DNA of 64,000 nucleotides, taken from the NCBI RefSeq assembly GCF_044324875.1, contig NZ_CP172185.1. One strand, given 5' to 3'. A program made the position numbers and the translations under genes. This document shows positions 869-64,000 of this stretch, in pieces (position 1 is the stretch's first letter; each line of letters begins with the position of its first letter). This DNA is from Escherichia coli (GTDB lineage: Bacteria > Pseudomonadota > Gammaproteobacteria > Enterobacterales > Enterobacteriaceae). The notes under the pieces are model-generated. The model saw only the letters and a list, made by a program, of their open reading frames with translations, was not told the origin of the DNA and did no database searches.

Positions 869-958
869 GGAGAGATGCCGGAGCGGCTGAACGGACCGGT
901 CTCGAAAACCGGAGTGGGGGCAACTCCACCGGGGGTTCAAATCCCCCTCTCTCCGCCA
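869..958 (+). tRNA. serU: tRNA-Ser (anticodon CGA), 90 nt, long variable arm
   Basis: GGAGAGATGCCGGAGCGGCTGAACGGACCGGTCTCGAAAACCGGAGTGGGGGCAACTCCACCGGGGGTTCAAATCCCCCTCTCTCCGCCA. Anticodon stem CCGGT/ACCGG with loop CTCGAAA gives anticodon CGA. The variable arm differs from the attR copy by two compensatory changes. Confidence 0.9.
898..958 (+). repeat. attL core: 61 bp 3' portion of tRNA-Ser, directly repeated at 47168..47228 with 2 mismatches
   Basis: GGTCTCGAAAACCGGAGT[G/A]GGGGCAACTC[C/T]ACCGGGGGTTCAAATCCCCCTCTCTCCGCCA occurs at both ends of the phage-gene block. Integrase gene lies immediately inside. Confidence 0.75.
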
Positions 959-5692: not shown

Positions 5693-5860
5693 AATGGCAG
5701 CCTCCACGTTGAGTATTGATAACTCACCACCGAGGCTTTCCACGACCATAATGGTGGTGAGACGTACAGGGGTGGAAATACCGGTCAACGTAGAACCCGG
5801 CCAGCCTTGCGGCTGCCCTGCACGCCCCACCATAATCTGAATGTGGCTGTGCTTCACGCA

Positions 5861-5884
5861 TAAAAAAACCGCCTGAGCGCGGTT
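5861..5884 (-). terminator. Rho-independent terminator-like hairpin on the minus strand
   Basis: Minus-strand AACCGC-GCTCAG-GCGGTT followed by a T-run; lies between dicF and the Rha-like gene. Confidence 0.5.
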
Positions 5885-6167
5885 GTGCGCTACGTTTGAC
5901 TTCGGGTTTCCACGCCCGGCACCCGGTTTATGAGGTGCAGGTGCACTATAATTCCACCCGTACTGGTTTTCAATAGCTACATTCAACATTTTCTCTTACC
6001 TTTCATCACCGAAGTGAACTTTGTTGATGCGGTGCCAGGTGCCTCCAGGTGACGTTAACCAGTTAACAATTAACGCCGGATACAGAGAATCCACCCATAA
6101 CTCTGTTTTTGGTTTTAACTGTTCCACGTGCGATCAGCCGCATTCACCACATCACAAAATTCACTTT

Positions 6168-6225
6168 AAAAAGGGCGGCAGAGCAGTCACGGAGTAAAAC
6201 TGATACCGCAAAACGTCACCAGAAA
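6168..6225 (-). ncRNA. dicF: DicF sRNA homolog (ftsZ-targeting sRNA of Qin-type prophages)
   Basis: Minus strand reads TTTCTGGTGACGTTTTGCGGTATCAGTTTTACTCCGTGACTGCTCTGCCGCCCTTTTT, nearly identical to the recalled K-12 DicF (one difference) and ending in its own terminator. Lies downstream of a DicA-like repressor as in Qin. Confidence 0.7.
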
Positions 6226-6837: not shown

Positions 6838-7065
6838 TGAGAAATCCTCTGTTTCCCCTTAACGCCGGGGTAGCGGAACAAAAACCTGCTGCATAGTTAA
6901 AGTTAAACCCTGCCGTCATGTTCATACGCCTCGGGCTGGCTACTTAACCCCTGACCACTGCCTGGTAACTCGAAGTATTGCCCTGCGTTCTGTGGGGCGG
7001 GGTGGGTTGGTGAAATTAGTTTATACAAAAATAAACTTAACAGTCAATCTGCAACTTAACTAAAC

Positions 7066-7096
7066 AGTAAAAAATAACACTCTCTTTGAGAGTGTT
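7066..7096 (-). terminator. Rho-independent terminator downstream of the parE-like gene
   Basis: 9 bp stem AACACTCTC/GAGAGTGTT with a 3 nt loop, followed on the minus strand by ATTTTTTAC. Confidence 0.6.
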
Positions 7097-7121
7097 TAAG
7101 GCTGTGTTGATGGGCAGAGGG

Positions 7122-7406
7122 TTATGTTACAGGGAACTGTCGGCGGGTATGGACTACGTTTACTATTTCAATACTTGAGGTTGTCACGCGGTACAGAATT
7201 ATATAATTGGGGTGAGCCACAATCTCACGTAAGCCTGGCACTCTGTCGCTTGGGGGGTATAAATACGGATGTTCGGATAATGGCAGCACACACCCCCTTA
7301 ATCGCTGCCATAAGCGTTCTGCCGCATCTATGTCGAAACGAGCAATGTAACTAGTTATATCATCCAGGTCGGTATCTGCGCTTTCAGGCCATAACACAGG
7401 TAACAT
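7122..7406 (-). CDS. parE: ParE/RelE-superfamily toxin (ParE2-like) of a three-gene TA cassette
   Basis: 94 aa. N-terminal LWPESADTDLDDITSYIARFDIDAAERLWQRL and C-terminal IVAHPNYIILYRV fit the ParE pattern. Start abuts the stop of the upstream antitoxin. Confidence 0.8.
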   Translation of the reverse strand: MLPVLWPESADTDLDDITSYIARFDIDAAERLWQRLRGCVLPLSEHPYLYPPSDRVPGLREIVAHPNYIILYRVTTSSIEIVNVVHTRRQFPVT

Positions 7407-7598
7407 TTACTGTTCACTCCGTTCCTTGCGTATTTTAGCAAAGCGTTCTGCCATTCTGCGCTCAACTTCGTCATGGGGAATTGCTGGGCGCGGATCTGCA
7501 AGGCTTGCAGCTACTTTGGCTCGCAGCCATTCGTTGTAACTGTTTTCTTGTTCAATAGTTTCAAACTCAGAAACCATTGGTGAAAGGGCCGTATTCAT
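7407..7598 (-). CDS. paaA: PaaA2-like antitoxin (63 aa)
   Basis: ATG at 7598 preceded by GGAGG. MNTALSPMVSEFETIEQENSYNEWLRAKVAASLADPRPAIPHDEVERRMAERFAKIRKERSEQ resembles the recalled PaaA2 antitoxin of O157 prophage three-component systems. Confidence 0.7.
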   Translation of the reverse strand: MNTALSPMVSEFETIEQENSYNEWLRAKVAASLADPRPAIPHDEVERRMAERFAKIRKERSEQ

Positions 7599-7627
7599 GG
7601 CACACCTCCGTCTGTGTATGGTGGTCA

Positions 7628-8026
7628 TTATGCCCGATGCCCTTTCCGGGCAGCGAGCCATCTTTCAATTGTGCGATCCATTAACTCTTTTTTGTCTTTC
7701 ATCTCCTGAAGCATTTGCTCTTGATCTTCCTCTGGAAATGCCTCAAATGTTTGAAGTAGCTCCTTTTGCCTAGGAGTTATTTTTATTATATCTTGTATTC
7801 TGTCATTTTTTTCTTCATTTAACGGTAAGAAGAACCAATACTGAGGATATCCTGTTGCTTCAGATAGTTTATCTAGATTAGCTGCTGTAGGGCTTGAGAT
7901 ACCACAAACCCATCTTTGAACGGATTGTTGAGTAATGCCAATTCTGCGCGCAAGTTCTGCCTGGCTCCAGCCTGTTACCAACAAAAGCTTCCTAATTCTA
8001 AGAGCACTAATTTCGAGTACACCCAT
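7628..8026 (-). CDS. paaR: PaaR-like HTH regulator (DicA paralog); start uncertain (track ORF extends to 8101 from TTG)
   Basis: XRE-type HTH (GWSQAELARRIGITQQSVQRWVCG). C-terminal LTPRQKELLQTFEAFPEEDQEQMLQEMKDKKELM is paralogous to the C-terminus of the adjacent repressor. Sits directly upstream of the antitoxin-toxin pair. Confidence 0.6.
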   Translation of the reverse strand: MGVLEISALRIRKLLLVTGWSQAELARRIGITQQSVQRWVCGISSPTAANLDKLSEATGYPQYWFFLPLNEEKNDRIQDIIKITPRQKELLQTFEAFPEEDQEQMLQEMKDKKELMDRTIERWLAARKGHRA

Positions 8027-8060
8027 CTGATATATCTTGTTTTTAAGAGTATGCTTCCCA

Positions 8061-8432
8061 TCAGGCGCGGCGACCTTGCTGCGCCAACCAACGTGCGACA
8101 AAATCTTCCATTGCTTCTTTTTTGTTTCTTAGTTCTTTTATGATCTCTTGCTGTTCATTATCAGGAAATGCACTAAATATTTGTAGCAATTCCAGCTGGT
8201 TAGGGGTTAATGCTATAGCTCTTGATGATGGAGACTCTGTTATGTCTTCTGGCTCAATATCAAGATAACCCCCTGGCATCCCATATGTTTGTTCAATACG
8301 TCTAGCTGCTTTTTCGCCAAACGTAGCCTTACCGCTCATTAACTGAGATAAGTAACTTTTCTCTTTGGGTGGCAAAGTTCTGTCTTTGAACCACTCTTTG
8401 AGGCGTAAACGCCGAATCTCTCTTGTTTCCAT
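8061..8432 (-). CDS. dicA: Prophage immunity repressor, DicA-like (HTH_XRE)
   Basis: 123 aa. HTH (SYLSQLMSGKATFGEKAARRIEQTYG) and C-terminal LTPNQLELLQIFSAFPDNEQQEIIKELRNK resemble recalled Qin DicA. Divergent from the cro-like gene. Confidence 0.75.
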   Translation of the reverse strand: METREIRRLRLKEWFKDRTLPPKEKSYLSQLMSGKATFGEKAARRIEQTYGMPGGYLDIEPEDITESPSSRAIALTPNQLELLQIFSAFPDNEQQEIIKELRNKKEAMEDFVARWLAQQGRRA

Positions 8433-8535
8433 ACATGCATTATCTTTAGTAATTGCGAAATAAGCAAATACTTGACTGGTTTATTTAGTTACGTATAAAC
8501 TTTTGCTTGCACTAAAGTATGTTGAGATCGAAATC
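8433..8535. promoter_or_regulatory. Divergent immunity promoter/operator region between the repressor and cro-like genes
   Basis: Sigma70-like rightward promoter TTGACT (8472..8477), 16 bp spacer, TATAAA (8494..8499). Flanked by partially palindromic TTTAGTAA / ACTAAAG motifs that may be operators. Confidence 0.5.
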
Positions 8536-8823
8536 ATGACTCTAAAGGAATTCATCAAATCATTAAAAACTGGAGAAGCAAAAAAATTTGCTGCCAACCT
8601 TGGTGTGTCTCCGTCCTTCTTGTCTCAAATGGCATCTGGCAGTTCACCAGTGTCTCCTGTTCGTGCGTTAATGATAGAAGCAGAAACTGCAGGGCATGTT
8701 ACAAGAAGAGAGTTGAGGCCGAATGACTGGGATCTTATATGGCCGGAATACACCGGAATTACGCCCCCTTCAAGTCATAAATATGAGCTTAACACCAAAA
8801 AAGTTGATGGGGTTGATTCATGA
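8536..8823 (+). CDS. Cro-like regulator, YdaS/DicC-type HTH
   Basis: Internal ATG at 8536 of track ORF 8503..8823. Motif KFAANLGVSPSFLSQMASGSSPVSPVRALMIEAETAGHV resembles Rac YdaS. First rightward gene. Confidence 0.7.
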   Translation: MTLKEFIKSLKTGEAKKFAANLGVSPSFLSQMASGSSPVSPVRALMIEAETAGHVTRRELRPNDWDLIWPEYTGITPPSSHKYELNTKKVDGVDS

Positions 8824-9245
8824 AAATCAAACATGAGCACATCCGCATGGCGATGAATGCCTGGGCGCATCCGGACGGCGAAAAAGTACCGGCTGCGAAA
8901 ATTACCAAAGCGTATTTCGAACTGGGTATGACGTTCCCGGAACTGTACGACGACAGCCACCCTGAAGCCCTGGCGCGTAATACCCAGAAAATTTTCCGCT
9001 GGGTAGAGAAAGACACCCCTGATGCAGTTGAAAAAATTCAGGCGTTGTTACCAGCGATCGAAAAGGCAATGCCACCTTTGCTGGTGGCCAGAATGCGCAG
9101 CCACAGTTCAGCTTATTTTCGGGAGCTGGTGGAGATGCGGGAACGACTGGTGAGAGACGCTGATGATTTTGTCGCGGTGGCAATAGCTGGCTTCAACCAG
9201 ATCAACCGTGGTGGCCCGGCCGGAAATGCTGTGGCTGTGCATTGA
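8820..9245 (+). CDS. YdaT-like protein (proposed CII-like regulator in Rac-type prophages)
   Basis: 141 aa starting MKIKHEHI, as recalled for Rac YdaT; overlaps the cro-like stop (translational coupling). Confidence 0.7.
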   Translation: MKIKHEHIRMAMNAWAHPDGEKVPAAKITKAYFELGMTFPELYDDSHPEALARNTQKIFRWVEKDTPDAVEKIQALLPAIEKAMPPLLVARMRSHSSAYFRELVEMRERLVRDADDFVAVAIAGFNQINRGGPAGNAVAVH

Positions 9246-13215: not shown

Positions 13216-13451
13216 TTTTATGGATCACCTTTCTGATTGATTTCATATTGGCGAGGTGACGGGAGTTAAGTAGAATTGCTGCGGGTGCTTGAGGCTATCT
13301 GCCTCGGGCATGAACACCAACGGCAGATAGAGAAAAGCCCCAGTTAACATTATGCGTCCTGCAAGACGCTTAACATTAATCTGAGGCAGAATCTATGTCT
13401 AGCAAATGTAGGTTAGCCTCTTACGTGCCGAAAGGCAAGGAGAAGCAGGCT

Positions 13452-13607
13452 ATGAAGCAGCAAAAGGCGATGTTAGTCGCCCTGATCGTCATCTGTATTA
13501 CCGTCATTGTGACGGCACTGGTAACGAGGAAAGACCTCTGCGAGGTACGAATCCGAACCGGCCAGACGGAGGTCGCTGTCTTCACAGCTTACGAACCTGA
13601 GGAGTAA
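13452..13607 (+). CDS. hok: Hok/Gef-family membrane toxin (type I toxin-antitoxin)
   Basis: MKQQKAMLVALIVICITVIVTALVTRKDLCEVRIRTGQTEVAVFTAYEPEE (51 aa) closely resembles HokD/RelF. Track ORF 13395..13607 carries an in-frame upstream extension. Upstream leader has inverted repeats. Confidence 0.8.
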   Translation: MKQQKAMLVALIVICITVIVTALVTRKDLCEVRIRTGQTEVAVFTAYEPEE

Positions 13608-55870: not shown

Positions 55871-56498
55871 TATGTATTCCCTTGTGATTATAATCTTCAT
55901 GAATATATCAATAAGTGCCGTTATCCAAAAAAAAGCACATTTGGATACTATTCTATGAAGTTCATTTTATTTTAAAGATTACATGTAACAAATATATTTA
56001 AAAGATTTCAAAATGTTTCTAATCTATTTAATATAATTCAGAATTATGAATTCTAAATATAAATATTCATGAAAATTATAAATGTATATCAATATGTTAT
56101 GAGTTGAGCGGAAACATAGGGGGTATCAATGATTGTTGCGCCAAACGGCTGGTGTGATCACGCGCACATTAATGAAGGCATAAAAAAAGCCGGCATCATG
56201 CCGGCCCAAAAAAAATAAACAAGACGATAAAAGGCTAATAACGGAAGCATCATGACACAGAATAATAAAAAGGTATAATTGTAATCAGTGCTAATATATT
56301 GATTGAATGAATTAATAAAGCCGATATCAAAGATAAATAAAATCGCTCAAAACGATTTTTCCTGTATTCACTGCCGTTGCGCAAAAATTATCTATTTGTT
56401 CAAAAAATGATTGAGTCTTGACTGGCTCATCCAATGTGGAAAAATGTGACTTTTATCACATAATAGTACTAAGTCTGAATTTTCCGGGTTATCTCAAA

Positions 56499-61901: not shown

Positions 61902-64000
<2,099 letters not shown>

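Follow-up and report, generated by a model that had tools for sequence, protein, structure and literature searches.

Which of two neighbouring repressor-like genes governs lysogeny, and does either of them serve the toxin–antitoxin (TA) pair that follows? This question is raised by positions 7122–8432 of a 64,000-nucleotide stretch of Escherichia coli DNA (contig NZ_CP172185.1; hereafter the window), where two genes for helix-turn-helix (HTH) proteins precede a pair of the PaaA–ParE type. The initial annotation had read the region as a three-gene PaaR–PaaA–ParE cassette fused to a prophage immunity region, with the first HTH protein as the immunity repressor and the second as the cassette's own PaaR. 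The features that it described are present where it had placed them. We conclude, with a probability of roughly 0.75, that these genes belong to the immunity and addiction module of a lambdoid E. coli prophage resembling CP-933P/Sp12, a module with an extra repressor, here called HTH-B. The core paaR2-paaA2-parE2 switch is already known, and what is new is the fourth gene, hthB, between paaR and paaA.

The minus strand at 7122–8432 holds four tightly packed genes, in the order paaR2-type gene, hthB, paaA and parE. They are listed here in that order.

8061 to 8432, minus strand: paaR2 orthologue, CI-like immunity repressor by sequence, 123 amino acids, probably leaderless.
7628 to 8026, minus strand: hthB, extra repressor paralogue of the DicA/PaaR1 class, 132 amino acids, ATG at 8026.
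7407 to 7598, minus strand: paaA2-type antitoxin gene, 63 amino acids, product without a DNA-binding domain, directly upstream of the toxin gene.
7122 to 7406, minus strand: parE2-type toxin gene, 94 amino acids, with a rare L7P substitution.

The gaps between these genes are 34, 29 and 0 nucleotides, and a consensus scan judged against shuffled expectation found no above-chance promoter or terminator between them. Because of the short gaps and the lack of an intervening terminator, paaR, hthB, paaA and parE probably form a single four-gene operon. A single 9/12 consensus match inside hthB, considered as an internal promoter for hthB or paaA, did not exceed the shuffled expectation. The TAA stop codon of paaA abuts the ATG of parE, and a GGAGG Shine-Dalgarno sequence lies upstream of paaA.

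The assignment of the last two genes to a PaaA2/ParE2-type pair was borne out. ParE matched PDB 5CW7_B (ParE2) across residues 1–93 (phmmer, E = 2.6e-58) and is 93% identical to ECs_2281 of the Sakai prophage Sp12. PaaA matched PDB 3ZBE (PaaA2; E = 2.2e-34), scored 85.7 bits on NCBIfam NF050103 (cutoff 50) and is 94% identical to ECs_2280 of Sp12; the identities to the 3ZBE and 5CW7 proteins are likewise 94% and 93%. Given this relatedness to ParE2 and PaaA2, ParE would be expected to be toxic, PaaA to neutralise it, and the pair to be addictive. Codon 7 of parE (7386–7388) is CCT, encoding proline, where ParE2 and all relatives compared have leucine. The exact P7 protein occurs on 2 contigs and the otherwise identical L7 protein on 900.

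Which HTH protein is PaaR can be decided by comparison with known structures and prophages. The first one, the 123-amino-acid protein that heads the leftward operon and faces ydaS, is about 90% identical over residues 1–62 to the structure solved for the N-terminal domain of PaaR2 (PDB 7NKV/8C3K, named 'phage repressor protein CI'), and 73% identical over its full length to ECs_2279 of Sakai Sp12. As judged from sequence, this protein is the PaaR2 orthologue and the CI analogue, and the initial annotation, which gave the name PaaR to the second HTH protein, had the two labels swapped. Nor does its picture of a three-gene cassette fused to a separate immunity repressor hold, since in CP-933P the role of CI-like immunity repressor falls to PaaR2 itself (Jurenas et al. 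2021, PMC8630535). The same study described an immunity region with this TA pair as CI/Cro/CII-like (PaaR2 as CI, YdaS as Cro, YdaT as CII), found the switch of CP-933P to be bistable and the region to be made addictive by the TA pair, and noted that Sakai Sp12 is identical to CP-933P. The proposed comparison with paaR2-paaA2-parE2 of CP-933P, made here with Sp12, found members of the same families wherever the two loci share a gene. The TA pair does sit in a lambdoid immunity region, with the cro-like ydaS divergent at 8536–8823, and the suggested coupling of lysogeny control to addiction fits a CP-933P-type module, although it had already been published (PMC8630535).

Three architectures of such loci were distinguished. 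In the canonical form (a), found in locus L002, phage Evi and Sakai, paaR abuts paaA and is followed by parE. In form (b), a repressor of the HTH-B class is followed by paaA-parE and faces its own, different cro; examples are L003, L011, L012 and a locus at 1.17 Mb in O157:H7 SS52, adjoining a gene of the ECs1072 family. The SS52 locus is probably paaR1-paaA1-parE1 of CP-933M/Sp4, a name assigned here by inference; paaR1-paaA1-parE1 of CP-933M is mentioned in PMC8630535. In form (c), that of the window, paaR and hthB stand in tandem ahead of paaA-parE. The additional segment of form (c) is delimited as follows.

7600 to 8060, no strand assigned: 461-bp segment absent from canonical loci, consisting of hthB and two short spacers.

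In a blastn comparison with L002 the alignment breaks at 7599 and resumes at 8061. The window does not have exactly three genes with the regulator adjoining the antitoxin, as the insert at 7600–8060 intervenes. Furthermore, the spacer ahead of paaA in the window is of type (b) and identical to the hthB–paaA spacer of L003. On account of the 461-bp insert and this spacer, the tandem form looks like a PaaR2-type switch joined to an HTH-B–paaA–parE left arm, with the junction just past the paaR stop codon.

The single-repressor relatives of HTH-B have arrays of AAGTGT/AACTGT half-sites at both the right operator region (OR) and the left operator (OL). Because they face cro and have operators at OR and OL, sole repressors of the HTH-B class, which come from heteroimmune paaA-parE prophages, appear to be immunity repressors and not dedicated TA regulators. 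This bears directly on the explanation in which the 123-amino-acid protein is a stand-alone immunity repressor and the 132-amino-acid protein regulates, as PaaR, a three-gene TA cassette that is complete in itself and has become fused to the immunity region. Its appeal is that hthB directly precedes paaA-parE, that other prophages have a relative of HTH-B as the sole regulator before paaA-parE, and that the hthB–paaA spacer is the same in the window and L003. Yet the 123-amino-acid protein is itself the PaaR2 orthologue, the PaaR2-type gene abuts paaA directly in canonical loci, the single-repressor 132-amino-acid class faces cro with operators at OR and OL, and in the window neither paaA nor hthB is preceded by an above-chance promoter or operator. 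We regard a dedicated TA regulator as hardly likely at all. The second HTH protein belongs to another (HTH_3) repressor class, and its gene is an addition that separates paaR from paaA.

How is HTH-B related to PaaR? The observation that the two adjacent HTH proteins share a C-terminal domain was confirmed by BLASTP (E = 4e-15, 48% identity over 52 C-terminal residues), and profile–profile comparison aligned them over their full length (98.7% probability over 122 columns). PaaR and HTH-B each matched phrog_5736. AlphaFold models of the two proteins have a short helix and then a helix of about 30 residues beyond a disordered linker. On these alignments and models, PaaR and HTH-B are true paralogues that share a C-terminal helical domain. 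Their N-terminal domains are related only remotely, and HTH-B is 29% identical to PaaR2 overall. In the AlphaFold model of HTH-B, a disordered linker joins an N-terminal HTH_3 domain to a C-terminal domain made of helices; the N-terminal domain is classical, resembling that of 434 repressor, and the protein matches Pfam HTH_3 at 1.7e-11. When the HTH-B model was used for a fold search, the matches were all generic HTH_3 domains, with no solved full-length relative among them. Pfam holds no family for the N-terminal domain of PaaR or for the shared C-terminal domain, and neither protein had a Pfam match to the LexA-type peptidase S24 C-terminal domain. On the DicA model NF007257 (cutoff 101 bits), HTH-B scored 59.3 bits in a full-length alignment and PaaR 30.9 bits over the C-terminal domain only.

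HTH-B is 62–70% identical to the sole repressors of loci L003 and L010. Its N-terminal domain forms a clade of its own, 88–95% identical within tandem loci versus 56–66% in comparison with the single-repressor types, and all proteins with a tandem-type N-terminal domain for which the context was examined are encoded downstream of paaR. A search of 5.8 billion clustered proteins and of 1.84 billion representatives found no parent phage with this N-terminal domain in a sole repressor or on another C-terminal domain; the best matches outside tandem loci were 60–70% identical. A longer open reading frame for HTH-B, starting from TTG at 8101 (157 amino acids), was rejected because the paaR–hthB spacer varies out of frame among tandem loci, being 19, 30 or 34 nucleotides long.

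HTH-B in the window is chimeric, in that its last approximately 30 residues (7628–7720) resemble L003 and are unlike those of other tandem-type proteins. Loci L001, L005, L006 and L007 were noted for the comparison of these tails.

Could the extra gene be without function, a mere passenger carried along since two immunity regions were joined by recombination? Its weak ribosome-binding site, its variable or frameshifted C-terminal tails, the lack of cognate operators in cis and the absence of HTH-B from two canonical loci whose PaaR is of the same subtype would fit such an origin. Selection argues otherwise. The ratio of non-synonymous to synonymous substitution rates (dN/dS) of hthB, calculated over the first 100 codons, was 0.13–0.40 at dS of about 0.1–0.35, and about 0.2 between lineages at dS of about 0.3; for comparison, it was 0.06–0.22 for paaR and 0.02–0.06 for paaA. 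A dN/dS of about 0.2 indicates that HTH-B is under purifying selection. In addition, its open reading frame is intact, every family-invariant residue is kept in both domains, and prophages of different backbone encode exactly this protein, which was found on more than 800 contigs. A mere passenger therefore seems very unlikely to us.

Several observations weigh against the interpretation of the region as an immunity module with a working extra repressor. The start of hthB lacks a good Shine-Dalgarno sequence, so that little of the protein may be made. The stop codon at the HTH-B tail is lost in several E. coli tandem loci, giving a protein of 153 amino acids that runs into paaA, and the lost stops together with the recombinant end point to relaxed constraint on the C-terminal end. 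The rare L7P substitution could affect the folding or toxicity of ParE. No binding site for HTH-B was found, the only half-site cluster in the 64-kb window being a chance occurrence at 63779. Moreover, the nearest repressors for which operators can be recognised share only 62–66% identity with the N-terminal domain of HTH-B, which is why the specificity of HTH-B cannot be read off from them.

The regulatory DNA resembles that of CP-933P. The features on the right of paaR and beyond parE are as follows.

8433 to 8535, no strand assigned: OR region, 103 bp, with divergent promoters and three TTTAGT operator cores.
8472 to 8477 and 8496 to 8501: −35 and −10 elements of the rightward promoter (PR), from the promoter scan.
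8445 to 8440, minus strand: −10-like GATAAT of the repressor-maintenance promoter (PRM).
8536 to 8823, plus strand: ydaS, Cro analogue, 95 amino acids, divergent from paaR.
8813 to 8830, plus strand: YdaT operator OM, TTGATTcatgaaAATCAA, at the ydaS/ydaT junction.
8820 to 9245, plus strand: ydaT, CII analogue, 141 amino acids.
7096 to 7076, minus strand: intrinsic terminator after parE, a 9-bp stem and then U6 (−11.5 kcal/mol, z = −3.2).
7018 to 7047, minus strand: leftward promoter (PL)-like promoter and OL, TTGACT-18-TAAACT, a 30-nucleotide inverted copy of PR (8472–8501).

The 103-bp OR contains three TTTAGT cores versus 13 in the whole 64 kb (Poisson P ~1.5e-6). These cores fit the repeat published as the PaaR2 operator consensus in the CP-933P work, GTTTAGTAA, and are predicted operators of the PaaR2 type. 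In its left half, OR aligns with that of Sp12 and of phage Evi. The PL/OL copy lies just beyond the parE terminator, as described for CP-933P, and an alignment of prophage immunity types indicated that this segment is specific to the PaaR2-type class. The terminator had been described as strong; it is present, but is canonical rather than exceptionally strong. The site motif of YdaT, TTGATT-N6-AATCAA (Prolic-Kalinsek et al. 2023, PMC9986795), has one exact match in the window, where 0.01 would be expected by chance. The ydaS product is 62% identical to Sakai ECs_2278 and matches phrog_35 at 8.4e-18, while YdaT is 86% identical to the Sakai protein and matches PDB 8BT1 (3.8e-81) and 3C4R (4.7e-89). 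The −10-like GATAAT, which the consensus promoter scan did not call, ends 6 nucleotides before the ATG of paaR, and no Shine-Dalgarno sequence precedes the gene; the paaR2 orthologue is probably leaderless.

Operators of the HTH-B class, sought as AAGTGT/AACTGT half-site clusters, as AANTGT-N-ACANTT and as palindromes with 8-nucleotide arms, were absent from the immunity region. The initial annotation had offered cross-talk of the paralogues at shared operators as a possibility; with N-terminal domains that are only remotely related and HTH-B-class half-sites missing from OR and OL, this idea finds no footing in the window. An ACAC-N8-GTGT sequence over the paaA Shine-Dalgarno was considered as an HTH-B site; it is present in L003, is not kept in other tandem loci, and was dismissed as chance.

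How, then, might the module work? Extrapolating from CP-933P, PaaR2 would repress PR and PL in competition with YdaS, giving a bistable switch. Transcribed together with the repressor, the TA pair would kill cells in which the immunity region is lost or replaced. HTH-B would be co-transcribed with paaR in the lysogenic state and act in trans. Our tentative proposal, which we put at somewhat less than even odds, is that HTH-B is a lysogen-expressed, trans-acting second repressor that provides a second immunity specificity or silences other lambdoid phages or prophages, and is not a TA regulator.

A different role would be to tune the switch itself. PaaR2 is reported to form large oligomers (octamers), and HTH-B might form mixed oligomers with it through the C-terminal domain, changing cooperativity or looping between OR and OL, or titrating PaaR2. 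The homologous C-terminal domains with the same predicted helical layout would allow this, and the identity of this domain to that of PaaR is 54–61% in E. coli tandem HTH-B proteins and 48–52% in those of the single type. In the window, though, it is 46%, the distal half having been swapped for L003-type sequence; HTH-B tails vary freely, from 131 to 153 amino acids; and PaaR differs by only 3 residues between tandem L001 and canonical L002, so that co-adaptation is not seen. Tuning by mixed oligomers is in our judgement unlikely. The preferred reading of HTH-B as a second, trans-acting repressor can also be cast in a wider scheme, which we consider somewhat doubtful: a two-repressor immunity region in which PaaR2 runs the switch in cis, while HTH-B either extends immunity, through a second specificity, to heteroimmune paaA-parE-type lambdoid phages or joins PaaR2 in mixed oligomers built on the shared C-terminal domain, in either case linking prophage states in poly-lysogenic E. 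coli.

If HTH-B is indeed a trans-acting repressor, the window would offer a simple natural case of a prophage with a second immunity specificity, and HTH-B could influence superinfection exclusion as well as the regulation of one lambdoid prophage by another in pathogenic E. coli. The PaaR/HTH-B pair is also convenient for studying the shuffling of DNA-binding and oligomerisation domains in repressors of the DicA/PaaR type. The core system is textbook knowledge in the field and adds nothing new by itself; the tandem version is widespread in E. coli.

Among 5,426 complete E. coli genomes, 611 carry a PaaR2-type gene. The subtype of the window accounts for 18 of these, and 16 of the 18 have the tandem form, 86–87% identical to the window (16 of 5,426 genomes); two canonical loci of the same subtype have no HTH-B. 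In a larger collection, the exact HTH-B of the window was found on 835 contigs and the exact PaaR on 806. The prophages with these exact proteins differ in their left arms and replication modules. Because identical proteins occur in prophages with different backbones, the four genes travel as a cassette. The genes of the tandem are annotated just as 'hypothetical protein' and 'HTH domain-containing protein', and no description of a tandem-repressor variant was found in the literature searched, the coverage of which was incomplete. The best match to window positions 7000–8900 among the 5,426 complete RefSeq genomes is 87% identical, and the carriers of the exact proteins (more than 800 contigs) include chromosomes of 5.75–5.8 Mb. 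It seems that the complete genomes do not include the lineage that carries this exact module.

The DNA-binding domain of PaaR also occurs in other settings. In Yersinia, Martelella and others, Enterobacterales among them, proteins of about 210 amino acids carry a PaaR2-type N-terminal domain fused to an S24 peptidase domain like that of LexA; they are represented here by the following entries.

P0128, P0131, P0134, P0142 and P0144: S24-fused relatives of the PaaR N-terminal domain.

The same DNA-binding module therefore occurs in SOS-cleavable and non-cleavable repressors, and its fusion to S24 implies that such repressors are built from exchangeable DNA-binding and C-terminal modules. Apparently truncated PaaR proteins in L022 and L025 (65-amino-acid calls) proved to be a gene-calling artefact of a probably leaderless gene, and the full open reading frame is intact. 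Only in L007 (NZ_CP148435.1) does a real 1-nucleotide deletion, in a G-run, shift the frame of paaR, with HTH-B, PaaA and ParE intact; either PaaR has truly been inactivated there, or the homopolymer was misread in sequencing.

The region just downstream of PL (window ~6900–7010, minus strand) holds a leader some 100 nucleotides long (CAACCCACCCCGCCCCACAGAACGCAGGGCAATACTTCGAGTTACC...GACGGC) that hardly varies across prophages of three immunity types, even though their promoters and operators immediately upstream are different. It had no Rfam match at the gathering threshold and may serve the leftward ydfA/dicB operon as a conserved 5' leader. Gathering-level Rfam matches elsewhere in the window were the C4 antisense RNA, isrK and DicF in the leftward operon (5750–5837, 5862–5938 and 6173–6224, all minus strand), the sok antitoxin RNA (13283–13457, plus strand) and rseX (56182–56271, minus strand). 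The presence of sok implies a hok/sok type I TA system in the same prophage. A tRNA near the start of the window (869–955, plus strand), matched at the same level, may be the integration site.

How does the module compare with known systems? The paaR2-paaA2-parE2 system of E. coli O157:H7 CP-933P was reportedly the subject of work by Hallez et al. in 2010. The later papers on CP-933P-type systems are those of Jurenas et al. (2021) and Prolic-Kalinsek et al. (2023). The window resembles paaR2-paaA2-parE2-ydaS-ydaT of CP-933P/Sp12 in its proteins (ParE 93%, PaaA 94%, PaaR 73%, YdaS 62% and YdaT 86% identical), the divergent layout, the left half of OR, the TTTAGT-type cores, the PL copy past parE and an identical YdaT site. 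In contrast to CP-933P/Sp12, it has the 461-bp insert with HTH-B between paaR and paaA, its paaA is preceded by an HTH-B-class spacer instead of the canonical one, and the right half of OR, YdaS and the linker of PaaR have diverged.

In the loci with an HTH_3 repressor ahead of paaA-parE, such as that of O157:H7 SS52, the repressor has the same length and domain order as HTH-B, is 62–70% identical to it and likewise stands directly upstream of paaA-parE. These repressors face their own cro, with AAGTGT/AACTGT operators at OR and OL, whereas the neighbour ahead of hthB is the 3' end of paaR, no operators of this kind are near it, and the N-terminal domain of HTH-B belongs to a separate clade confined to tandem loci. 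With DicA of the cryptic prophage Qin, HTH-B aligns over nearly its whole length and PaaR over the C-terminal domain (NF007257); they share the cI position of a lambdoid prophage and the lack of a LexA-like S24 cleavage domain, but with 59 and 31 bits against a cutoff of 101, HTH-B and PaaR are relatives and not orthologues of DicA.

Finally, cI-rexA-rexB of phage lambda is a PRM operon expressed in the lysogen; behind its repressor gene come accessory genes whose products work in the lysogen. The window likewise has a repressor gene followed by accessory genes in what is probably a PRM operon, an analogy also drawn in PMC9986795. It differs from lambda in that its accessory genes are a type II TA pair and a second repressor rather than an abortive-infection pair.

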